From Candidatus Electronema halotolerans (lineage in GTDB: Bacteria > Desulfobacterota > Desulfobulbia > Desulfobulbales > Desulfobulbaceae): DNA of 32,000 nucleotides. The position numbers and the translations under genes were made by a program. The stretch's first letter is position 1, and every line of letters begins with the position of its first letter. This document shows positions 13,816-24,943 of the stretch, piece after piece. The notes beneath the pieces are model-generated. The model did no database searches, was not told the origin of the DNA, and saw only the letters and a list, made by a program, of their open reading frames with translations. Location of the stretch: assembly GCA_942493095.1 (NCBI GenBank), contig OW818675.1, positions 60,001-92,000 of the forward strand, given 5' to 3'.

Positions 13816-15626
13816 AAAAAAACACCCGCTGCGACCGGATCTTAGTTGTTGACGACAATCAGGAAATTCACGCGGATATCAAAAAAATCCTCCAAAAGCC
13901 GCAGGTTTCGCCGGAATTGGATTCGCTCTTTGCTGATATCATCGGCCAGGCTCTTCCGGCAAAAGAGCAGCAGGGCAAGGAGCAGGCCGAGCTGATCATT
14001 GACTCCGCCTTTCAGAGCGAGGAGGCTGTGGCCTTGGTCCGGCAGGCCCGGCTGGAGCGCAGACCCTATGCAATGGCCTATATTGACATGCGGATGCCGC
14101 CCGGCTTGGACGGACTCCACACTCTGCGGCGGCTCCAGCAGGAGGATCATCAGCTTCATTTTGTCGTCATCACCGCTTATGCCGACTATTCCTGGCAGGA
14201 GATCAGCTCGGCCATGCTCTCCGCCGACAAGCTCCTGATCCTGAAAAAACCCTTTGAGGCCATAGAAATTCGCCAGTCCGCCAGTGCCCTGCTGGAAAAA
14301 TGGCATCTGACCTTGGAGCACCGGCAGGCCATGTCCGCCTTGGTTATGCAGCGCAACATGCTGGAGGAGCATGTCCGCGAGCAGACTGCCGAGCTGCGCC
14401 ACACCAATGAGCTGCTGACCAAGGAGATCAAGGAGCGGCGGCGGGCTGAGGAGAAGATCCGCCAGCACCGCGACAGTCTGGAAAAGCAGATTGAGCTGCG
14501 CAGCGCGGAAATCATGCAGCAGAACCGCTTTCTCAACACGGTCATCAATGCTCTGCCGCATCCCTTTGCCGTCATTGATGTGGCCAGCCACCGGATTCTC
14601 GCCGCCAACCGGGCGGCGGGCAGCCGGGCCGCCGGGCGTGACCATCTGCGCACCTGCTATCAGTTCATGCACGGTCTTTCTCGGCCCTGCCACGAACGGG
14701 ACATGGAATGTCCGCTCCAGACAGTCCGTCAGCACGGCAAGCCGGTGGTGCTTGAGCAGACCATGAACGGCCCGGATGGCTCCAAGCAGGTCATGGAGAT
14801 TCACGCCTGCCCGGTGCTTGAACGGGACGGCAGGATCACCAGGGTGATCGAATACTGCGTTGACATCACCCGCCGGAAAAAAATGGAGCAGGAGCTGATC
14901 AGAAACAGGAAGATGGAGGCCATCTCGACAATGGCGGGCGGCATTGCCCATGATTTCAACAATCTGCTCATGGCGATCACCGGCAATATCGAACTGTCGC
15001 TCCTCAAGCTGCACCCGGAGCACAGCGTGCTGCCGTTTCTCAAAAATGCGGCCTTCTCAGCAGAAGAGGCCAAGCATCTGGCCCATAAATTCCTTCTTTT
15101 CTCCCACTTTGCCCCGCCTGCGCGCAGGCCGGTGCCCTTGGCCGAGCTGATCGCGGCTGCGGCCAGAGCCGCGCTGGATGGCAGCGGCAGCACAGCGGAA
15201 CTGCACCTGCCAGACAACCTCTGGCTCCTTTATGCTGATCCTGGACAGATTGAGCAGCTGCTCCAGGAGCTGCTCAAAAATGCCCGTGAAGCAATGGCTC
15301 CGGCAGGCGGCACCGTGCGGATCAGCGCCGAGAATGTCTGCCTGCTCGGCCATGAGGCCAGCGGTCGCAGCCAGGGCCGCTATGTCAGGATTGCGGTCAG
15401 CGACAAAGGCTGCGGCATTAAGAAGGAAGACCTGCCCAAAATTTTTGATCCCTATTTTTCCGGCAAAAGCAGAGGCTCGGTCAAAGGCATGGGGCTGGGA
15501 CTGACCATTGCCGCCTTCATTGTCAGCCAGCATGAGGGCCATCTCGAAGCCGAGGCCGGGCCAGGAGGGGTTGGTGCCACTGTGCTTGTTGACATTCCCG
15601 CTGCCGAGGTGAACGGGAACAGCTGA
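13812..15626 (+). CDS. Response-regulator receiver / coiled coil / PAS / HisKA / HATPase hybrid kinase
   Basis: ATGA overlap with the upstream kinase gene. REC domain: ILVVDDNQ, phospho-acceptor context AYIDMRMPPGLDG, LKKPF. PAS with several Cys. H-box GGIAHDFNNLL; G-boxes SDKGCGI and GMGLGLTIA. Confidence 0.88.
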   Translation: MKKNTRCDRILVVDDNQEIHADIKKILQKPQVSPELDSLFADIIGQALPAKEQQGKEQAELIIDSAFQSEEAVALVRQARLERRPYAMAYIDMRMPPGLDGLHTLRRLQQEDHQLHFVVITAYADYSWQEISSAMLSADKLLILKKPFEAIEIRQSASALLEKWHLTLEHRQAMSALVMQRNMLEEHVREQTAELRHTNELLTKEIKERRRAEEKIRQHRDSLEKQIELRSAEIMQQNRFLNTVINALPHPFAVIDVASHRILAANRAAGSRAAGRDHLRTCYQFMHGLSRPCHERDMECPLQTVRQHGKPVVLEQTMNGPDGSKQVMEIHACPVLERDGRITRVIEYCVDITRRKKMEQELIRNRKMEAISTMAGGIAHDFNNLLMAITGNIELSLLKLHPEHSVLPFLKNAAFSAEEAKHLAHKFLLFSHFAPPARRPVPLAELIAAAARAALDGSGSTAELHLPDNLWLLYADPGQIEQLLQELLKNAREAMAPAGGTVRISAENVCLLGHEASGRSQGRYVRIAVSDKGCGIKKEDLPKIFDPYFSGKSRGSVKGMGLGLTIAAFIVSQHEGHLEAEAGPGGVGATVLVDIPAAEVNGNS

Positions 15627-15701
15627 GTGACGTGAAACAACTCCTCATTTGGCAGGCGCAGAGCGCACTTGCAACGTGAATACATGTTACTTGGAGACAG
15701 C

Positions 15702-16913
15702 ATGGAATATGTCATTGTCGGCGGTTCCGTGGCCGCAGCTTCAGCGTTGGCGGCCATTCGTCAGAACAGGCCCAGGGCGGAAATCCGGGTCGTGGCTGAT
15801 GAAGCGGTTCCGTTTTATTATCGACCGCTGATTCCTTATTTGCTGGACGGCAGCCGGACTGCTGATGAAATCCTCTTTGCCGAGCAGCCCTCAGCCACTG
15901 ACGGGGCAGAACTGATCCACAACCGCTGCGTGGCCCTTGATCCAGCCCAGCAGCGCATCAGGCTGCAATCAGGCCGGGACGTGACCTACAGCAAACTGCT
16001 CTTGGCTGCGGGCGGCGCGCCGATCATGCTCTTGGGCGACCTTGACGGCGTGGAACACCAAGGAGTCTTCACCCTGCGCAGCATGGATGATGCGATCAAA
16101 ATCAGGGACTTCCTGCCCGGTTGCCGGACAGCGGCGGTCATTGGCGGCGGGCTGGTCGGCATCAAGGCGGCTGAGGCCTTGGCCAAGATTGGTCTGGCAG
16201 TCACGGTCATTGAACAGAAGGAGCAGATTCTGCCGCTCCGAGCAGACCACGTTGCGGCAGCGGCAATTGCGGCCCGGCTCATAGAAAAAGGCGTGACCGT
16301 TCTGACCGGGCAGGTGCCGCAGACAATAACTGCCTCGGCAGGCAGGGCAGACGGTGTGCGCCTTGCAGATGGCAGAACAGTGACGGCTGATCTGGTCATT
16401 CTCGCGGTTGGCATCAGGCCGAAGATTGATTTTCTCGCTCAATCAGGGATTGCCATCGAGCGGGGTGTGCTGGTGGACAGCCGGATGCAGACTTCGCTGC
16501 CAAACATTTATGCTGCCGGGGATTTGGTGCAGTTCACGGATCAGGCCGCAGGCGGCGAGGAAGTCAGCGCCCTGTGGAGCAATGCTGTTCACACCGGCAG
16601 AATTGCAGGCTCCAATATGAGCGGAGGCCGGGCCGTGGCACCGCCCATGCTTTCGGTCATGAACAGCACCGAGATCGCCGGACTGCCCCTGATTTCAGCC
16701 GGGCAGCTTGATGATCCGGCAGGAGAATGTGCTGTCTTTGCTGAATCCTGCGGCGACAGCTACCGCAAGCTCCTTTTTGCTGAGGAACGCCTTGTCGGCC
16801 TGCTCTTTCTTGGCAATGTTGACCGGGCCGGGGTCTATGTCAACATGATCCGCAACCGGATGCCGCTGCAAGGACGGCGGGGTGAGCTTGTCCGGGAGGT
16901 TATGAAATTCTGA
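15702..16913 (+). CDS. FAD-dependent pyridine nucleotide-disulfide oxidoreductase family protein (ferredoxin/rubredoxin-reductase-like)
   Basis: ATG after GGAGA. Two dinucleotide folds: YVIVGGSVAAASA and AAVIGGGLVGIKAAEAL. The AAGD motif is present. No N-terminal redox-active CxxxxC. Confidence 0.85.
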   Translation: MEYVIVGGSVAAASALAAIRQNRPRAEIRVVADEAVPFYYRPLIPYLLDGSRTADEILFAEQPSATDGAELIHNRCVALDPAQQRIRLQSGRDVTYSKLLLAAGGAPIMLLGDLDGVEHQGVFTLRSMDDAIKIRDFLPGCRTAAVIGGGLVGIKAAEALAKIGLAVTVIEQKEQILPLRADHVAAAAIAARLIEKGVTVLTGQVPQTITASAGRADGVRLADGRTVTADLVILAVGIRPKIDFLAQSGIAIERGVLVDSRMQTSLPNIYAAGDLVQFTDQAAGGEEVSALWSNAVHTGRIAGSNMSGGRAVAPPMLSVMNSTEIAGLPLISAGQLDDPAGECAVFAESCGDSYRKLLFAEERLVGLLFLGNVDRAGVYVNMIRNRMPLQGRRGELVREVMKF

Positions 16914-16955
16914 CAAGCAGGCTGCGCTCAAGAGGAAAACCATCAACCATCACGG

Positions 16956-16987
16956 TTGACAGTAAAGAATTGACCGTGCTATATAAT
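16956..16987 (+). promoter_or_regulatory. Candidate sigma70 promoter for the Mo-enzyme gene
   Basis: TTGACA (16956-16961) followed 18-20 nt later by TATATAAT (16980-16987), about 75 nt upstream of ATG 17064. Confidence 0.35.
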
Positions 16988-17063
16988 GCAATTGTTTTGC
17001 GAGAAAGGTCATTGTTTCTTTTGGATGCAAGAGAAGAATTTCAGGCAGTTTTGGAGAAAAGCG

Positions 17064-19853
17064 ATGGGTGAACAAGTCAGTTTGCTGAAGGCGGCAACCT
17101 ACCATTTTATCTCCCTTTTCTATCGGGATGAAATTTCCCTGCCGCTTTTAGAAAAGCTGTCTGGCAGCCAAGTTGCGGCGCAGATCAGCGGCTTGGGGAA
17201 TAACCAAGAAGCAGCAGAACTTCATGCTCCTTTGGCCCGGATGAACGGCTGGCTTCAATCTGCTCCGGCAGAGGAACTGTTCCGCGAGCTGCGCCATGAC
17301 TATGCCGAGCTGTTTCTTAATGCAGGCCAGAATCCCGCCTTCCCATACAGCTCCTGTTATGTTTCCAGCAAGATTGAGCCGCTGCTCATGCAGGAGCCGT
17401 TGTTCCAAGCGCGCAAGGCCTATCATGCCAGCGGACTGCATAAGAACCCTGCTTGGCCGGACTTGGATGACCACATTGCCGTGGAGCTGGAATTCATGGC
17501 TTATTTGGCCGGACAAGCTGGAACTGAGAAGCAGCAGGCAGATTTTCTCTGCAATCACCTCCTGCCTTGGGCCGAGCCATTCTGCACCCAGCTTGCTGAT
17601 TCCGCAACAACAGATTTTTACAAAGGGCTGGCTGATCTGACAACAGCGGTGCTGACTGCGGATGATGCCACGCTCGCGGCCTTGGAACCGCTGCTGGCTG
17701 CGTTAGACGTGGACACTCAATTAGTCACGCTGGCGGAAGGGGCAGTGCCGCCGACAGAAGACAGCAGTGTCAAGACGCATTGCTATGTCTGCGCTGGTCT
17801 TTGCGGGCAGGAAATTAGAATCAAAGACGGGGTTATTGTCGGCTGCAAAGGGCTGGCCGGTGATCCCAAGGGTGGCGGGCGGCTCTGCATCAAAGGCGCG
17901 AATGCGCATAAGAACACCTATTCCGCCTACCGTTTGAAAACGCCGCTTATTCGTGAGCAAGGCCGATTCCGCAAAGCCTCTTGGCAGGAAGCCCTTGACC
18001 TGACTGCGGACAAGCTGAAGAGCTTTGCTCCCAAGACAGTCGGCTTTCATCAGGGCAATGACTTTAACAGCTGGTGTCACGATGCGGTCATGGCGGCCTA
18101 TGGCACACCCAATAAGACCACCCATCGCCAGATGTGCGACAATCCCAACCGGATGGCCAATGAGCACTGTCTGGGCGAGAAGCGGCCTTGGCTTGACTAC
18201 GCGCATTCGCAGTATATTCTCCTCTTTGGCATCAATGAGCTGGCCACCTCTGTCGGGCAGCGCAAGGTCAGCCTGCTCAAACAGGCGGTGAAGAATGGAG
18301 CCAAGCTGGTGGTGGTTGATCCGCGCCGCTGCGAGACAGCCCAGCTTGCCACCGAGTGGATACCGATCATTCCCGGCACAGACGGCGCCTTGGCAATGGC
18401 GATGTGCTATGTCATTGTTGCGGACAATCTTTATGACAAAAACTTCACGGAAAACTGGTGCTATGGCTTTGCCGAGTTCAATCAACGGCTGCTGGGCGAG
18501 GAGGACGGCATAGTTCGCAGTCCGCAATGGGCCGAGGCCATCTGCGGCGTGCCAGCGGCAACCATTGAGCGGCTGGCCCGTGAGTTTGCTGCTGCCGCCC
18601 CTGCCGCAGGCGCACTGTCATGGACTGGGGTTGGTCAGACACCAAATGCTGTTCACGCCACCCAAGCGATACAGGCCCTGAACGCCCTGCTCGGCTGCTT
18701 TGACGCGCCCGGCGGCCCGGCCTTGGTCGGCAAGTTCAAGCTAGCCTCGCCGTGGGCGGATGATCAGCCTAAGCCGCCCAAAAACGCCGAGAAGTTCAAA
18801 CTCAATCCCGGCAGACTGTGGAGCGGTTGGATTCCGGCCTATTTTGAAGAAGATGCGCAGGCCGGGCGGCTCAAGGCCATGCTCTGCTATTTCGGCAATC
18901 CGGTCATGTCCAGCGGCGCGGAGCCAAGCCTGCGCCGAGCGGTTGACAAGCTGGACTTTGCTTGCGCCATTGACTGCTTTATGAGCAATACTGACGAGCT
19001 GTGCGACGTGGTATTGCCGGACTGCACCTATTTGGAGCAGAGCCGGGTGGTTTCTGACTGGATGTATGAATCCTTTCTTTCGCTGGGCCAGAAGGCGATT
19101 GAGCCGCTGTATGAATCTCGGCCCGTGGTCTGGATATTCACGGAGCTGGCTCAACGGCTCGGCTTTGGCGAATATTTCCCGTGGCAGAGCGAGGACGAGT
19201 ACCTGCGCAATCAGCTCCGCAATCAGCAGGTGACGCTGGAGGAGCTGCGCGAGACGGGCTATTTCATCACCGACCCACAAGCCTTCCGCAAGTACGAGCA
19301 GTGGGGTTCGATCAATCCGCCGCCCGGTTACGGAGCCTCTGGTCACAGCGCGACCGGCAAATACAACTTCATCAATCCTGTTGCAGAAAAGGCTGGCCTG
19401 AACGCCCTGCCTGACTACCTGCCGCCGTGGCAGGACTGGCCGGAACTGGCCCCTGATGCGGATTATCCGCTCATTCTTGGCTACTTCCGGCTGCTGGAGC
19501 ATGAGCACACTGCGACCTGCTGGAATCCGGCCTTGATGAAGCAGTGCGGCAGCAATCCGGTCTGGATCAACTGGTTAGATGCGAAAGCCAGCAGCATTGC
19601 GGACGGCGATAAGGTGCTGATCGCTTCGCCTTGGGGACAGGTTCAGGGGACAGCAAAAGTGACGTGGGATATTCGTCAAGGTGTGCTGGCCACAGCAGGC
19701 GGCTTTGGCGGCAGATACGGGCTGGAAGGTGATCCTAAGTTTCCAAGCTGCGGCGGCTTCAACACCAATGTCCTCCTGCCGCCCAACGTGGCCTGCAAAT
19801 GGTCTGGCACCCCGCCGCTGAAGTATATCAAAACCAGAATTGAAAGGATTTGA
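17064..19853 (+). CDS. TorD/DmsD-like chaperone domain fused to a molybdopterin (bis-MGD, DMSO-reductase family) oxidoreductase catalytic subunit
   Basis: ATG 6 nt after GGAGA. The N-terminal ~200 aa carry TorD-family signatures (DYAELFLNAGQNPAFPYSSCY; DDHIAVELEFMAYLA). After an Ala/Leu/Asp-rich linker comes the MopB 4Fe-4S motif C-x2-C-x3-C...C (HCYVCAGLCGQ...RLCIKG). MopB and C-terminal molybdopterin-binding regions follow, ending in VLIASPWGQVQGTAKV. No twin-arginine signal and no in-frame stop. Confidence 0.85.
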   Translation: MGEQVSLLKAATYHFISLFYRDEISLPLLEKLSGSQVAAQISGLGNNQEAAELHAPLARMNGWLQSAPAEELFRELRHDYAELFLNAGQNPAFPYSSCYVSSKIEPLLMQEPLFQARKAYHASGLHKNPAWPDLDDHIAVELEFMAYLAGQAGTEKQQADFLCNHLLPWAEPFCTQLADSATTDFYKGLADLTTAVLTADDATLAALEPLLAALDVDTQLVTLAEGAVPPTEDSSVKTHCYVCAGLCGQEIRIKDGVIVGCKGLAGDPKGGGRLCIKGANAHKNTYSAYRLKTPLIREQGRFRKASWQEALDLTADKLKSFAPKTVGFHQGNDFNSWCHDAVMAAYGTPNKTTHRQMCDNPNRMANEHCLGEKRPWLDYAHSQYILLFGINELATSVGQRKVSLLKQAVKNGAKLVVVDPRRCETAQLATEWIPIIPGTDGALAMAMCYVIVADNLYDKNFTENWCYGFAEFNQRLLGEEDGIVRSPQWAEAICGVPAATIERLAREFAAAAPAAGALSWTGVGQTPNAVHATQAIQALNALLGCFDAPGGPALVGKFKLASPWADDQPKPPKNAEKFKLNPGRLWSGWIPAYFEEDAQAGRLKAMLCYFGNPVMSSGAEPSLRRAVDKLDFACAIDCFMSNTDELCDVVLPDCTYLEQSRVVSDWMYESFLSLGQKAIEPLYESRPVVWIFTELAQRLGFGEYFPWQSEDEYLRNQLRNQQVTLEELRETGYFITDPQAFRKYEQWGSINPPPGYGASGHSATGKYNFINPVAEKAGLNALPDYLPPWQDWPELAPDADYPLILGYFRLLEHEHTATCWNPALMKQCGSNPVWINWLDAKASSIADGDKVLIASPWGQVQGTAKVTWDIRQGVLATAGGFGGRYGLEGDPKFPSCGGFNTNVLLPPNVACKWSGTPPLKYIKTRIERI

Positions 19854-19884: not shown

Positions 19885-19908
19885 GCAATGACAAGCCAGC
19901 GTCATTGC
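19885..19908. terminator. Hairpin between convergent genes, a possible bidirectional terminator
   Basis: GCAATGAC (19885-19892) pairs with GTCATTGC (19901-19908) around an 8-nt loop. It overlaps the flippase stop codon. No T-run follows. Confidence 0.25.
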
Positions 19909-21347
19909 ATGGTGCTTCCGCTGCATCTTGGCCACCGCAGCCTGCTGAGGTCGTCCAATGAAACCAAACGCAGCAGGAAACCAGCTCCTGCGCAGATGAA
20001 AACACCAAGCAGCAGTGGCAGAATAATGCCATAGTTCTGGGCTATTGCAGCGGCTGCTGTTCCGGCTGCGCCGCCGATTGTCAGCGTCAGCATGGTTTTG
20101 GTCAGCATGGCGGGCAGCAGGTCGCGGAAGAGCAGCCAGTTGATGACAAACATCAGGCCGCTGGAAAGAACAATTGCCCAGCTGCTGCCGAGCGACGCAT
20201 AGTGCGGTATCAGAAGCAGATTGCCTATTCCGCAGAGCAGCACTCCTGCCGCCTGCACCCAGCCCATTGCGCTGACCCGTTTTGCGGCAATGAAAAAGGC
20301 ATCAAAGATCGTGTTGAGAAAGGAAAAGCTGATCGACAGGGAAAGAATGCGGAAAACCTGCGCTGAAGCCGTGAAGTCCGGGCCGAGAATGAGCGGAATG
20401 ATCTGATCTGCCAAGGCGGCGGCAAAAAAGGTCAGCAGGAGGCAGACAAGGAGCATGAAGCGGAACACGGCCTGACTGGTCTGGCGCAGCTCGTCCCGAT
20501 TTTCGGCAAAAAAGAGGCGGGAGAAGATCGGCAGCAGGACTGGCATGAAGGTCATGGGAATGATCTGCACTCTGGTGAAAATGCGGAATGGAGCCTGAAA
20601 CAGGGCTGCCTCGGCATTGCCCGCCAAGACCTTGAGAAGAAAAACGCCTGTGTAAAGGTGCAGCTGCACCAAGAGTTGAAACAGGCCGATCTGCAAGGAC
20701 TCACGCAGCAGGTCTTTGGCGTGGCGCAAGGTGAAAATTTGCCGAGGCAGCTCGCGCAGATAAGGCGAGAGTTTGCTGGTCAGCCAAATTGTTGTCATGA
20801 AACCGGCCAGACAGGCAAGGGCATTGGCACTGAAAATCGCTCCAAGACCGAGCTGCCAGCGCATGACAAGGGCGACCAAGCCAATCAGGACAAAGGCGCT
20901 GGTCAGAGCCGGGATGGTTTCGTACTGCATCCGCTGCAAGGCAATGCTGACTGTGCCTGCGGTCTGGGTCATGGCCATGATGCCGGTGGTTGCGGCAATG
21001 ATCAGCAGCAGCTTGAGATCAGGCAGATTGATGAACGAGCCGACTACCAGCAGCCCGGCGGCGATGAGCAGGGTCAGAAGCAGATTCCATGTCCAGCCGA
21101 GCAGAATATGTCCAGCCGCACGTTCCTTGTGCTGGGCGATTTCCCGGACTAAAATTCTCGGAAAGCCCAAGTTCAGGAGCGGCAGGGCCACCCAGCCAAT
21201 GGCCATGAGCACGGAATAGCGGCCAAAATCTTCCAGCCCCAAATAGCGGGACAGCATCCCGACCAAGGTTAGGCCGACCAGCAGCTCGGCGGCGCGGGCG
21301 GCAAAAGTGAAGCTGAGATTGGCCGCCATGCGGCGGGTTTCACCCAT
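19902..21347 (-). CDS. Polysaccharide biosynthesis flippase (Wzx-like, MOP superfamily)
   Basis: Polytopic membrane protein with about 12-14 hydrophobic segments, of the polysaccharide-biosynthesis/oligosaccharide-flippase type. Start set at ATG 21347 (MGETRRM...) because 21348 onward belongs to the IS inverted repeat; the open frame runs to 21374 inside the IS end. Confidence 0.85.
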   Translation of the reverse strand: MGETRRMAANLSFTFAARAAELLVGLTLVGMLSRYLGLEDFGRYSVLMAIGWVALPLLNLGFPRILVREIAQHKERAAGHILLGWTWNLLLTLLIAAGLLVVGSFINLPDLKLLLIIAATTGIMAMTQTAGTVSIALQRMQYETIPALTSAFVLIGLVALVMRWQLGLGAIFSANALACLAGFMTTIWLTSKLSPYLRELPRQIFTLRHAKDLLRESLQIGLFQLLVQLHLYTGVFLLKVLAGNAEAALFQAPFRIFTRVQIIPMTFMPVLLPIFSRLFFAENRDELRQTSQAVFRFMLLVCLLLTFFAAALADQIIPLILGPDFTASAQVFRILSLSISFSFLNTIFDAFFIAAKRVSAMGWVQAAGVLLCGIGNLLLIPHYASLGSSWAIVLSSGLMFVINWLLFRDLLPAMLTKTMLTLTIGGAAGTAAAAIAQNYGIILPLLLGVFICAGAGFLLRLVSLDDLSRLRWPRCSGSTMQ

Positions 21348-21363
21348 GGGTTCCTCGAAAAAT
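21348..21363. repeat. IS left terminal inverted repeat (IRL)
   Basis: GGGTTCCTCGAAAAAT, immediately preceded by CCAT (21344-21347). Confidence 0.8.
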
Positions 21364-21410
21364 ACAACATCCATTCTGCTGCATTTGTTTTGTTATTTTT
21401 TATTTTAATA

Positions 21411-21477: not shown

Positions 21478-22491
21478 ATGAACCAACTTGGATTTTTTGA
21501 TTTTTATATTCGTCTTTCCCGAATTGACAAAGCAGGTGATCCTTTAGTTAAGATCAACAAGGCTATTGACTGGGAAATATTTCGGCCAATTCTTGAAGAA
21601 GCAAAAAGAAAGCCTGTGAAATCAAATGCTGGAGCTAAAGGTTATGATTCAGTCATGATGTTCAAAATTTTAATTTTGCAATCATTATACAATCTTTCTG
21701 ATAAAGGGATGGAATATCAAATTCTTGACAGATATTCGTTTTCCAGATTCCTTGGACTTCGGGCGGCTGACAAAGTTCCAGATGCGACAACGATATGGCT
21801 TTTTCGTGAAACTTTGACCAAAGCAGGAAAAATCGAGGAACTGTTTTCTGTTTTTGACGAATTTCTTGATGAAAATGGATATCAAGCCAGAAAAGGGCAG
21901 ATAGTCGACGCTTCCATAGTCAACGCCCCGATCCAGCGTAACAGCCGCAAGGAAAACAAGCAGATCAAGAATGGTGAACAGCCTGAAGGATGGAGTGAGA
22001 ATAAGCAGGCGCAGAAGGATACTGATGCCCGTTGGACCAAAAAGAACGGCAGAAGCTTTTTTGGTTATAAAAATCATATATCTGTTGATGTGAAGCATAA
22101 ATTCATCCGAAAATATGCGGTGACCAGCGCCGAGGTTCATGACAGCAATATTTTTGAGGAGCTGCTTGACCCTGACAACACCAGTCGGGATATCTATGCG
22201 GATTCGGCATACAGATCTGAAAAAAAGCTCAACTGGTTGAACGAGAATGGATACAGAGAGCATCTGAACCGCAAAGGAACACGAAGCCGGAAACTGACCG
22301 AATGGGAGAAGCAGGGAAATCGGACAAGATCAAAAATTCGCTCCCGGATTGAACACGTCTTCGGCATCCAGGCGCAACGTGCTGGCAATATGATTCTCCG
22401 AGGAACAGGTTTCATTCGCGCTGCTGCGAAAATAGGCTTGAGAAACTTGACGTTCAATATTGACAGGTACGGAACTCTTAATAAAATTTAA
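21478..22491 (+). CDS. IS5-family DDE transposase
   Basis: 337 aa. N-terminus (FFDFYIRLSRIDKAGDPLVKINKAIDWEIFRPILE) and DDE contexts (QIVDASIVNAP; IYADSAYRS; RSRIEHVFG) are typical of IS5-group transposases such as InsH. Confidence 0.92.
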   Translation: MNQLGFFDFYIRLSRIDKAGDPLVKINKAIDWEIFRPILEEAKRKPVKSNAGAKGYDSVMMFKILILQSLYNLSDKGMEYQILDRYSFSRFLGLRAADKVPDATTIWLFRETLTKAGKIEELFSVFDEFLDENGYQARKGQIVDASIVNAPIQRNSRKENKQIKNGEQPEGWSENKQAQKDTDARWTKKNGRSFFGYKNHISVDVKHKFIRKYAVTSAEVHDSNIFEELLDPDNTSRDIYADSAYRSEKKLNWLNENGYREHLNRKGTRSRKLTEWEKQGNRTRSKIRSRIEHVFGIQAQRAGNMILRGTGFIRAAAKIGLRNLTFNIDRYGTLNKI

Positions 22492-22627: not shown

Positions 22628-24742
22628 TTATCTCAAATTTTTCGAGGTTCCCCCATGACGGCAGGCGGCTGCCGCAGACAGGCGGCTTTGTCTGCACTTG
22701 TTGAACACCCAGCCGACCTCTTGAATGCCTGCCTGCTGGATGCGCTGCTGTGTCTCCTCAGCTTCTGCCAGCAAAGTTTTGCCGCATTCAAGCACACAGA
22801 TGAGCAAATCCGCTGCCGGGCTGAGAATGAGCGCGTCGCTGCCTGCCCGCAGAGAGGGACTGTCCAGCAAGACCATCTCATAGCCTTGGCCGCAATCACG
22901 CAGCAGCGGCAGCAGCTCAACAGCGTCGATGATGCTGCCCGGATCAGCAATATTTCGGCCCGCAGTGAGAATATCCAAGCCAGGAGCTGCATCAGGGCGC
23001 AGGGCCTCCTTAAAAGGCAATTTGCCTGCAATGACTTCAGCCAGCCCCTGCCGGTTTTTCAAAGCAAAGCTGCGATGCAGGACAGGCTGACGCAGGTTAA
23101 GATCAATGAGCAGGGTCTTTTTCCCGGCAGCGGCACAGGACAAGGCGAGATTGGCGGCCAGACTGCTCTTGCCTTCGCCGTTGCTGGAACTGGTGATCAG
23201 CACTATCTGGGCAGGCTTGCCGCCAGCCGCAAAAGCGAGACTGTGACGGATGCTCCGGTATGACTCAGCTAAGGGTGAACCGGGCGGCAGGCGGGAAAGC
23301 AGCCGCCGTCCGCGCAGGTGGCGGAAAAAAGGAATGCTGCCCAGCAGCCTGAAGCGGTCAAAATGGCGCAGGTCCGCAGGCGACTGAATGGCGGTGTCGA
23401 TATATTCAACGAAAAACGCGGCTGCCGTGCCCCAGAACAGGCCGAGAAACAATCCGGCCATGAGCATGATGGATTTCTTGGGAAATTTTTTCTTGTCAGG
23501 AACTTGCGCTGGTTCGACCACTCTGGTGTCAGACAAGGCGACCGCTTCAGCGACCTCCACTTTGCGCAGATAGGTGAGAAAAGTCTCATACACGTCTTTG
23601 CTGGAGGAAAGAGACAGCTCCAGCTGGGCCAGCCGGGCGGATTTCTCTGGAATGGCAGCCAATTTTTTCTCATATTCAGCAATCATGCGCCGGAGCAGGG
23701 TGCTTTTGGCCCGTCCCACTTCCCGGCTGATCTGAAGATCAACCAATTTGCTCGACAGAGAGTCATAAACCGGATCAATGCCGAAATTTTTTCGGTTCAA
23801 GGTGATGCTCTCGCTCTGGCTGATCAATTCCTTGACCTTGTCCAATTCGCTGGCCAACTGCTTGTATTCAGGATGATCTTTCTGATAGACCGTGCTCTTG
23901 GCGGCAAAGCTGATCAGCAGTTCGTTCAACTTTGCCTTCAGCGCGGTCATCTCGCCGTCTTTGGAAAATTCCTCAGTCTCCTGCCGATACTTGCTCACCT
24001 TGTTGAGCTGGGCCTCTGCGCTGGCGATTTCCTTGTCCTGCAAGGCAAGAAGCTGCTTGTTGTCCTCGTAACTTTTTGTCAGGTCGTTGAGCCGGGACAT
24101 GGTGTTGCTCAACTCAGTGTCCAAGTCTGCCGCGTTTTCATTGACTTTGAAGGCCGTCAGGTCGTCAAGCGCTGTGCTGTAATCGGCATGAAGCAGGGGC
24201 AGTTTATTTTTTATGAATGCCTTGACTTTGCCGAACTCAGCCTGCGCCCGCTGGACATTGAAGTCAAGATACAGCTCTGCCAGCCGGTTGGCAATTTGGG
24301 CAGACTGCTCCGCTTCTGGCGAGGTGGCCGTGATTTTGAGAATCGCGGTGTCCTCCTCCTGCTTGATCTTGACCGCAGGCTGGGGCAGCAGCTTGTTGAT
24401 CAGCGCGGCATCGACCAAATCCTCGGCCTTGATGGTCTCGCCATCCCGGTCTTTCAATTTGAGTTTCTTGATCAAATCGTCCAACAGCGGCCTGACCTTG
24501 GCCAAGGCGGTCTTGGTCTCAAAGATATCCTCATCGCTGCTTGCCACAGTGCCGGGCATGTCCAGCTCGGCCATCAATGACGACAGGGCACTGGAGGACT
24601 GAATAAAGAGCTTGGCCACGGCCTGATAGGTGGGCGTGATCAGCACGGCTCCGGCGGCAAAGGCGAGGAAGAAAAAAAGAAAGACGGCAAGGAAGGTGCA
24701 TTTCCGCCGCAGGAGGGTGTCCAGCAGTTGTAAAAATTCCAT
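22628..24742 (-). CDS. Polysaccharide co-polymerase / tyrosine-autokinase-like protein (Wzc/GumC/EpsG type, PCP-2)
   Basis: ATG 24742 after AAGGA. N-terminal Wzz-type TM segment, long coiled-coil periplasmic region and a second TM. C-terminal P-loop domain (Walker A SSSNGEGKSS, Walker B MVLLDSPS). The last 7 codons plus the stop lie inside the IS right end. Confidence 0.88.
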   Translation of the reverse strand: MEFLQLLDTLLRRKCTFLAVFLFFFLAFAAGAVLITPTYQAVAKLFIQSSSALSSLMAELDMPGTVASSDEDIFETKTALAKVRPLLDDLIKKLKLKDRDGETIKAEDLVDAALINKLLPQPAVKIKQEEDTAILKITATSPEAEQSAQIANRLAELYLDFNVQRAQAEFGKVKAFIKNKLPLLHADYSTALDDLTAFKVNENAADLDTELSNTMSRLNDLTKSYEDNKQLLALQDKEIASAEAQLNKVSKYRQETEEFSKDGEMTALKAKLNELLISFAAKSTVYQKDHPEYKQLASELDKVKELISQSESITLNRKNFGIDPVYDSLSSKLVDLQISREVGRAKSTLLRRMIAEYEKKLAAIPEKSARLAQLELSLSSSKDVYETFLTYLRKVEVAEAVALSDTRVVEPAQVPDKKKFPKKSIMLMAGLFLGLFWGTAAAFFVEYIDTAIQSPADLRHFDRFRLLGSIPFFRHLRGRRLLSRLPPGSPLAESYRSIRHSLAFAAGGKPAQIVLITSSSNGEGKSSLAANLALSCAAAGKKTLLIDLNLRQPVLHRSFALKNRQGLAEVIAGKLPFKEALRPDAAPGLDILTAGRNIADPGSIIDAVELLPLLRDCGQGYEMVLLDSPSLRAGSDALILSPAADLLICVLECGKTLLAEAEETQQRIQQAGIQEVGWVFNKCRQSRLSAAAACRHGGTSKNLR
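22637..22652. repeat. IS right terminal inverted repeat (IRR)
   Basis: ATTTTTCGAGGTTCCC, whose reverse complement is GGGAACCTCGAAAAAT. Immediately followed by CCAT (22653-22656). Confidence 0.8.
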
Positions 24743-24943
24743 TGAATCCTTGTGATCAGCAGGACATTCCGCTGTGCCTGGCAAGCAGGATTTCCGCCGC
24801 CCGCAGCATATCTTCGGGCAGCACTGCCTGCCTACATTTCTGCGCAGTTCGTGGATTCAAGTTGCACATGCAACTTTTGCTGGATTGAAAAAAGACTGGC
24901 AGCATTGTCTTGCTCATCAGCGGGCAAAGCGGGCGCGCTGCAA

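Follow-up and report, generated by a model that had tools for sequence, protein, structure and literature searches.

In a stretch of 32,000 nucleotides from Candidatus Electronema halotolerans (contig OW818675.1, positions 60,001 to 92,000; hereafter the window), one gene encodes a TorD-type chaperone and a molybdoenzyme catalytic subunit of the MopB family fused in a single polypeptide. The nature of this protein is established: it is a leaderless, single-subunit enzyme of the Psr/Phs lineage, of the class that binds molybdenum or tungsten through bis(pyranopterin guanine dinucleotide) (Mo/W-bisPGD), with one iron-sulfur (FeS) cluster and a built-in chaperone. We propose, with a probability of about 70%, that it is a soluble cytoplasmic enzyme in which the chaperone has taken the place of the twin-arginine translocation (Tat) leader, and that the genes now next to it are not conserved partners. 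An initial annotation of the window, made from the sequence alone, had recognised the fusion but had paired it with an FAD oxidoreductase encoded just upstream and, more speculatively, with a corrinoid/kinase cassette; the fusion stands, while neither pairing was borne out.

According to the open reading frame (ORF) list of the window, two genes lie on the + strand between 15669 and 19853 (Table 1). The second belongs to an ORF of 955 codons (16986..19853, +) without any internal stop, on which Pfam found four domains, all above their cut-offs: Nitrate_red_del (PF02613) at residues 75-200, with 91.8 bits for a cut-off of 22.2, Molybdop_Fe4S4 (PF04879) at 261-313 (31.6 bits), Molybdopterin (PF00384) at 316-723 (129.9 bits) and Molydop_binding (PF01568) at 829-947 (55.9 bits). 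These four ranges are numbered along the 955-aa ORF; everywhere else residues are counted from ATG 17064. Both motifs on which the initial annotation relied are present, DHIAVELEFM in the fusion protein and the C-x2-C-x3-C...C cluster motif in its MopB part.

Table 1. Features of the TorD-MopB fusion gene and of the region upstream, in window coordinates.
Feature	Position	Strand	Details
TorD-MopB fusion gene	17064..19853	+	929 aa; one frame, stop at 19853
TorD/redox enzyme maturation protein (REMP) domain	17064..17663	+	aa 1-200; PF02613 match
Linker	17664..17771	+	aa 201-236 (36 residues); from alignment columns and AlphaFold2 (AF2)
FS0 [4Fe-4S] ligands C240, C243, C247, C275, then K277	17781..17888	+	Molybdop_Fe4S4 match; invariant in 31 sequences
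R290, equivalent of NarG R108 (gate salt bridge, NarJ recognition)	17931..17933	+	BLASTP against E. coli NarG; invariant; in predicted interface
C358 in HRQMCDN, probable Mo/W ligand	18135..18137	+	Aligned with the SLCTAP Cys of PsrA 2vpw; invariant
E658, equivalent of NarG E794, partner of R290 in the gate salt bridge	19035..19037	+	BLASTP against NarG; invariant
Molydop_binding domain (domain IV cap)	19470..19826	+	PF01568, 55.9 bits
Intergenic region	16914..17063	+	Promoter-like TTGACA 16956-16961, N18, TATATAAT 16980-16987; ribosome-binding site GGAGA 17053-17057
FAD/NAD(P) oxidoreductase, Pyr_redox_2 + Rubredoxin_C	15702..16913	+	403 aa; Pfam and NCBIfam matches; GGAGA 5 nt before ATG

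The fusion is real and conserved, and the continuity of the frame across the junction was found both in independent contigs and in homologues. A contig assembled from a second sample of the source study spans 15000-18742 with zero differences. Another, from an independent marine-sediment study, spans 15000-19825 with 102 substitutions; its sole indels are a compensating +1/-1 pair at 17752/17755, three bases apart, that keeps the frame. More than 120 homologue clusters (clustering at 90% identity) carry the same four domains at 50-91% identity and come from Electronema, Electrothrix, Desulfofustis, Desulforhopalus and other Deltaproteobacteria. In a comparison with a relative 91% identical, the ratio of nonsynonymous to synonymous substitution rates (dN/dS) stood at 0.066 in the MopB catalytic part, 0.22 in the TorD domain and 0.26 in the linker. 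Both halves of the fusion are under purifying selection, and the value of 0.22 marks the TorD domain as constrained rather than decaying.

Translation almost certainly starts at ATG 17064 rather than at the beginning of the ORF (16986), because GGAGA stands 6 nt upstream of this ATG, homologues align from it and the frame-breaking indels of a diverged strain occur only upstream. In a diverged strain from a salt-marsh library, nine frame-breaking indels were counted, all in 17000-17049 and none further into the gene, so that this segment is best regarded as non-coding. Contigs from RNA libraries cover much of 15000-19558, and one spans 16782-17666; as these contigs show neither transcription nor its strand or level, they served only to place the start codon and hint weakly at read-through. 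The promoter-like TTGACA-N18-TATATAAT site between the two genes was recognised by eye and was not listed by a sigma-70 consensus scan. No convincing + strand terminator was found within 16914..17063.

The catalytic part has the features of the Mo/W-bisPGD class: an FS0 domain, the Molybdopterin and Molydop_binding domains, a cysteine at the metal position and an Arg-Glu salt-bridge pair. Its closest solved relative is Thermus thermophilus PsrA (2vpw; 242 bits, 28% identity), which is also the best structural match of the predicted fold of the protein. The cysteine of HRQMCDN, which the initial annotation had put forward as a candidate metal ligand, is invariant and aligns with the SLCTAP cysteine of PsrA 2vpw, which binds Mo; it is therefore a likely ligand. 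R290 and E658, likewise invariant, align with NarG R108 and E794, which form the surface salt bridge closing the cofactor cavity. None of the NCBIfam equivalogs was reached by the catalytic part: PhsA (NF012032) scored best, with 304.5 bits for a cut-off of 694, and all others lower, including Fdh-alpha (235 for 666) and NasC (166 for 1100). The nearest unfused relatives also fall below the PhsA cut-off.

The fusion protein shares with PsrA and PhsA (2vpw; Salmonella PhsA) the four-domain Mo/W-bisPGD core, the FS0 C-x2-C-x3-C...C arrangement and the cysteine metal ligand, but other marks of these enzymes are absent. As had been annotated, neither an RR motif nor a TAT_signal match occurs in the fusion protein; its N-terminus is a folded TorD domain which, with the linker, adds 236 residues, and the absence of a Tat leader points to a cytoplasmic enzyme. 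Also in agreement with the initial annotation, no gene for a 4Fe-4S subunit (PsrB/PhsB) or for an NrfD-type anchor (PsrC/PhsC) was found anywhere in the window, and none is conserved among 24 clustered related loci. A canonical Tat-PsrA (SRRNFLK leader)-PsrB-PsrC operon does exist in the same genome (C1:2247842-2251668), separate from the fusion gene. In its general organisation the protein resembles the ferredoxin-dependent assimilatory nitrate reductases NarB/NasA, formate dehydrogenase H and acetylene hydratase, single-subunit cytoplasmic enzymes which are soluble and leaderless and carry one [4Fe-4S] cluster and bis-PGD without an FeS subunit; these enzymes, however, belong to another clade and are not known to have a fused chaperone.

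The second-best solved relative is acetylene hydratase (2e7z; 168 bits, with a template-modelling (TM) score of 0.79 for the fold match). The protein might then be a non-redox Mo/W enzyme, a hydratase or a lyase, in which FS0 has no net role in electron transfer. This would explain why no redox partner is conserved: neither a ferredoxin, nor an FeS subunit, nor a flavoprotein is conserved beside the gene across the 24 loci. In acetylene hydratase the residue following the second FS0 cysteine is the catalytic Asp; here it is an Ala (C-Y-V-C-A-G-L-C), which makes chemistry of that type less likely. In addition, K277, a Lys just past the fourth cysteine that in this family usually connects FS0 with the pterin, is invariant, the nearest relatives by score are reductases of the Psr/Phs type, and a Fer4_5 membrane protein is encoded after the cluster in 3 of the 24 loci. 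We consider a non-redox function improbable.

The N-terminal part is TorD-like, as initially annotated. Besides the PF02613 match, its closest solved relative is TorD of Shewanella massilia (1n1c), with E = 5e-17 over residues 8-216, although none of the subfamily equivalogs was reached (TorD 88-92 bits for 132, DmsD 49-52 for 162, type II chaperone 50-53 for 152). The domain was modelled as all-helical, with a predicted local distance difference test (pLDDT) mostly above 90. In an alignment of 31 family members, the four FS0 cysteines, the HRQMCDN cysteine and 16 residues of the TorD domain are all invariant, the latter including Y80, A81, F84, L85, N86, G88, P91, P94, Y95, P106, R117, L134 and H137. 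The linker varies in length within the family and is about 18 residues shorter in cable bacteria; it includes a conserved amphipathic helix as well as a TLxEG motif, and was predicted to be ordered (AF2 pLDDT 86-93 over residues 201-240). We also looked there for a vestigial Tat motif and discarded the idea, no RR being present in any of the 31 members.

The AF2 model of the full-length protein had a pLDDT of 84 and a predicted TM score (pTM) of 0.87. When TorD and MopB were submitted as separate chains, the interface score ipSAE was 0.93, 0.94 and 0.93, compared to 0.01 for the best of three controls; the docking runs shared at least 97% of their contacts, with partner pLDDT values of at least 87. 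Among calibration cases, 58 of 80 solved complexes came up to this mark, against 2 of 110 mismatched pairs. The 31 contact residues take in 10 of the 16 TorD positions that are invariant (Fisher p = 8e-6). In the catalytic part, the predicted contacts involve Y286-T293, R301-K304, L682-E684 and parts of domain IV, and BLASTP against E. coli NarG placed residues 286-293 on the NarG loop Y105-Y111 and residues 676-687 on the loop S811-S822. In NarG, two loops and a strictly conserved salt bridge gate the cofactor cavity, which is open in the apo-enzyme, and the R108A substitution severely impairs NarJ binding (Arias-Cartin et al., PMC5123574). Because the contacts map to these gate loops, the predicted cis-interface falls on the site where, by experiment, a TorD-family chaperone is implicated in binding the core of its client.

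On this model, the TorD domain would act in cis on the two loops closing the cofactor cavity, 286-293 with R290 and 676-687 beside E658. Once docked, it would keep the apo-enzyme open for the insertion of FS0 and bis-PGD, as NarJ does for NarG, and it may stay docked after the cofactor has been inserted. The built-in maturation domain proposed in the initial annotation fits these predictions as well as the dN/dS of the domain. TorD, DmsD and NarJ share with the fused domain the PF02613 fold with its conserved patch, and the predicted contact with the client core falls at the NarG loops relevant to NarJ, whose client stays in the cytoplasm, as this one would. Unlike them, the domain is covalently fused to its client, has no leader peptide to bind and may remain docked in the mature enzyme. 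Two reservations weigh against this picture. The docking comes from structure predictors run on our own alignment, to which the calibration counts apply only roughly. In addition, all Mo/W-bisPGD enzymes conserve the residues that form the MopB side of the interface, and the invariance of these residues is thus no specific sign of docking.

The fused domain might instead be the general TorD-type chaperone of the cell, acting in trans on the exported PsrABC enzyme. The closed 3.2-Mb genome indeed contains a single PF02613 match, and no chaperone gene adjoins its Tat-PsrA-PsrB-PsrC operon. Three Electronema genomes (95, 93 and 85% complete), however, keep a Tat-PsrA orthologue with 75-91% identity and have no PF02613 domain, and in the models the TorD domain is occupied by its own catalytic domain. 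This role in trans has hardly any probability in our view; given the missing adjoining TorD gene and the sister genomes devoid of PF02613, the exported PsrABC seems, as judged from gene content, to mature without a TorD-type chaperone.

The fusion family is isolated. An exhaustive search of 1.84 billion protein representatives returned one other full-length representative at 899 bits, the next match being at 332 bits, where unfused proteins with at most 38% identity begin. In a tree of 149 sequences the fused family forms one clade (Shimodaira-Hasegawa (SH)-like support 100). Its sister (support 97) is a Tat-bearing archaeal enzyme with adjacent genes for Fer4_11, NrfD and a separate TorD protein. 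The lineage has likely descended from an exported canonical PsrABC system with its TorD, of which the leader, the FeS subunit and the anchor have disappeared. Another TorD-MopB fusion (P0189, 31% identity) is placed elsewhere on the tree, indicating that such fusions arose at least twice; its gene adjoins a MobB/MobA-type gene. Among the matches from the same library, several leaderless Psr/Phs-like enzymes are unusual fusions (P0175, P0156, P0219 and P0189), including MopB followed by a C-terminal class-V aminotransferase resembling cysteine desulfurases and a Fer4_11 beta-subunit placed ahead of MopB. In a genome of a sister genus (G094:C1:2756192-2758786), a PsrA-like gene has a separate TorD-family gene (a 206-aa frame) 100 nt ahead of it, an arrangement from which a fusion could arise.

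The family has a patchy distribution: 41 of the 301 genomes of the order contain it, and 6 of 401 genomes sampled evenly over the phylum. All 11 genomes of the genus matching Electrothrix have it, as do 3 of the 6 other genomes of the genus to which the window belongs, and it was found in 0 of 29 genomes of another genus of the same family. In one Electrothrix copy (L048, G256:C1:259669-262455) a nonsense change has turned CGA into TGA within GGGRLC; unless this TGA is a sequencing error, the enzyme is probably dispensable in that species. Selenocysteine was considered for the in-frame TGA and rejected, since the codon replaces a near-invariant Arg of GGGRLC and not the metal ligand.

We then come to the genes around the fusion. 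The initial annotation was right in describing the upstream neighbour as an FAD oxidoreductase with two dinucleotide folds, but the pairing of its product with the molybdoenzyme is not supported by synteny, distance or occurrence. Within the family, orthologues of the FAD gene turned up in no genera but the two of cable bacteria. In all seven other genomes examined they stand beside cooS (Ni-CODH; 634 aa, Prismane family), with a CooF-like ferredoxin gene also present in six; the usual order is cooS-cooF-FAD, except that the FAD gene precedes cooS-cooF in one genome and that cooF was not recovered as a cluster in another. On six closed chromosomes carrying both genes, the FAD gene is 0.26 to 2.4 Mb away from the molybdoenzyme gene. 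Their presence is not correlated within the genus either: in three Electronema genomes (G159, G237 and G268) the FAD gene occurs and the molybdoenzyme is missing, and in two others (G234 and G274) it is the other way round. Among 30 related loci, none has an FAD orthologue or a corrinoid gene beside the enzyme, the only trace being one weak partial match with 25% identity. The cooS-cooF pair of the Ca. Electronema halotolerans genome itself (C1:1736222-1738611) lacks a flavoprotein gene and lies about 1.66 Mb from the FAD gene. As the orthologues sit with cooS-cooF, the FAD gene appears to have been displaced in this genome. With its Pyr_redox_2 and Rubredoxin_C domains it resembles the flavoproteins associated with carbon monoxide dehydrogenase (CODH) in cooS-cooF-FAD units, from which it differs in its present position upstream of the molybdoenzyme gene.

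A dedicated role of this FAD protein as the NAD(P)H-oxidising donor of the molybdoenzyme, comparable to the flavoproteins of the NasB/NasC type that serve assimilatory nitrate reductases, and possibly a common pathway with the corrinoid cassette, would agree with the local arrangement: the two genes are on the same strand, the 150 nt between them hold no clear terminator, the order kinase-FAD-MopB is kept in a second, independent strain, an RNA-library contig bridges the end of the FAD gene and the start of the MopB gene, and no other redox partner is encoded nearby. The comparative data given above speak against it, as does the distance of the catalytic part from the NasC cut-off, and we see little likelihood in such a pairing. 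The FAD gene is thus not regarded as part of the molybdoenzyme system. Of the cytoplasmic, NAD(P)H-linked Mo enzyme with a maturation domain that had been annotated, the location and the maturation domain are retained and the NAD(P)H link through the FAD protein is not. The single functional unit suggested with the corrinoid/kinase cassette likewise found no support, no gene for a B12-binding, MtaA-like or DUF1638-kinase protein being found near the enzyme in the 30 related loci.

Elsewhere the fusion gene belongs to a conserved operon, whose core was recognised in 13-16 of 24 loci. The order is a PPDK_N/PEP-utilizer protein, a dual-specificity phosphatase, a sigma54 response regulator, an unknown protein, a PAS kinase, a single receiver, TorD-MopB, a GAF-GAF-PAS-HisKA protein without ATPase domain, TauE and a small membrane protein, followed in a few loci by the Fer4_5 protein mentioned above. 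In Desulfocapsaceae-type loci (L001:5608-16519, L079, L080 and L081) the operon comprises 9-11 genes, and its PPDK_N/PEP-utilizer protein resembles glucan-water dikinases; in the lineage of L008, glycogen-metabolism genes come after the enzyme gene. TauE adjoins the fusion gene in most loci across the range of 50-91% identity and is kept at greater divergence while the regulators change: these are sigma54 two-component systems, LysR (L107), or a PhnD-like binding protein with an sCache kinase and a sigma54 regulator (L008, L106). In cable bacteria the enzyme is encoded alone or with a divergent TauE only.

The position of the gene in this operon, between a single-domain receiver and the ATPase-less GAF-GAF-PAS-HisKA protein, raises the alternative that the molybdoprotein has no metabolic role and provides the input to a signalling system, as its sensor. 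The order histidine kinase-receiver-MopB-GAF/PAS/HisKA occurs in 14-16 of the 24 loci, with gaps of 17-18 nt in L001, the locus in which they were measured, and flanking by a receiver and a PAS-HisKA protein persists at 52% identity. Yet the regulators are interchangeable, cable bacteria dispense with them, the catalytic residues are all invariant and the dN/dS of the catalytic part is 0.066; a sensing role therefore has, in our estimate, very little likelihood. The REC-PAS kinase gene of the window was also considered as a remnant of the kinase of the ancestral operon and rejected, its 25-28% identity being that of generic kinase similarity.

The gene order seen in the window is secondary. 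In the relative with 91% identity, TauE is encoded upstream of the enzyme and two rhodaneses downstream; no orthologue of these TauE and rhodanese genes was found in the Ca. Electronema halotolerans genome, and the genes flanking the enzyme in the relative map to two distant places on the Ca. Electronema halotolerans chromosome. The genome shows visible insertion sequence (IS) activity, and a DDE_Tnp_1/DUF772 transposase gene at 21478-22491, between a polysaccharide flippase gene (19902-21374, -) and a Wzz/GNVR chain-length gene (22628-24784), fits the rearranged state of the region. We conclude that the fusion gene moved away from its TauE and rhodanese neighbours, and that its present place downstream of the B12-linked kinase operon and of the displaced, CODH-associated flavoprotein gene is a matter of chance.

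Returning to the soluble cytoplasmic enzyme that we favour, it would most likely act inside the cell on an inorganic sulfur anion such as thiosulfate, polysulfide, tetrathionate or sulfite. This is proposed because a TauE-type anion permease is the most persistent neighbour and rhodaneses accompany the enzyme in some genomes; the assignment is tentative and we rate it somewhat short of an even chance. Electrons would reach FS0 from a soluble donor. As the 24 related loci have no conserved electron-donor gene beside the enzyme, either the donor is soluble and of the ferredoxin type or the reaction is not redox. Several points weigh against our reading of the function. The identity of the metal, of the substrate and of the electron donor is inferred, as is the redox nature of the reaction itself. 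TauE is a broad family that gives a mere hint of sulfur-anion chemistry, and this genome keeps the enzyme without it. Co-transcription of the FAD and MopB genes in this organism is possible.

Our literature searches, which included papers on cable bacteria, found none describing a TorD-fused molybdoenzyme, and the words 'fusion' and 'fused' are absent from a survey of the NarJ subfamily (PMC4464133). The cable-bacteria papers discuss canonical Psr/PhsABC only. The MOLY cluster of sulfur disproportionators (PMC12998232, PMC9676032), with separate A, B and TorD genes and a predicted extracellular enzyme, was compared and set aside as another system, unfused and exported. An orphan psrA-like gene reported in Desulfurivibrio, DaAHT2_0547 (PMC5016858), might be a member of the family.

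New in this analysis are an account of where the FAD gene came from, a reconstructed ancestral operon and the predicted interface matching the gate loops of NarG. For the window itself, the NAD(P)H-linked and corrinoid-coupled pathway first proposed reflects genes that rearrangement of the genome has brought together by accident. The grip of TorD/NarJ-type chaperones on the body of their client, as opposed to its leader peptide, is known from low-resolution and mutational data only, and a conserved natural fusion whose predicted interface matches the experimentally implicated NarG loops is a ready-made object for structural work. The full picture drawn from the models, in which the protein would be a tethered chaperone-client complex with TorD staying docked on the insertion gate, and the enzyme together with TauE could process thiosulfate, polysulfide or sulfite in cable bacteria and sulfur-disproportionating Desulfobulbales, is one that we hold to be rather unlikely in its entirety. 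If true, the tethered complex would give a first atomic view of how NarJ/TorD-type chaperones hold a molybdoenzyme core. The association of a leaderless Psr/Phs-type enzyme with an anion permease offers a concrete candidate for the cytoplasmic handling of intermediate sulfur compounds in cable bacteria and Desulfocapsaceae.

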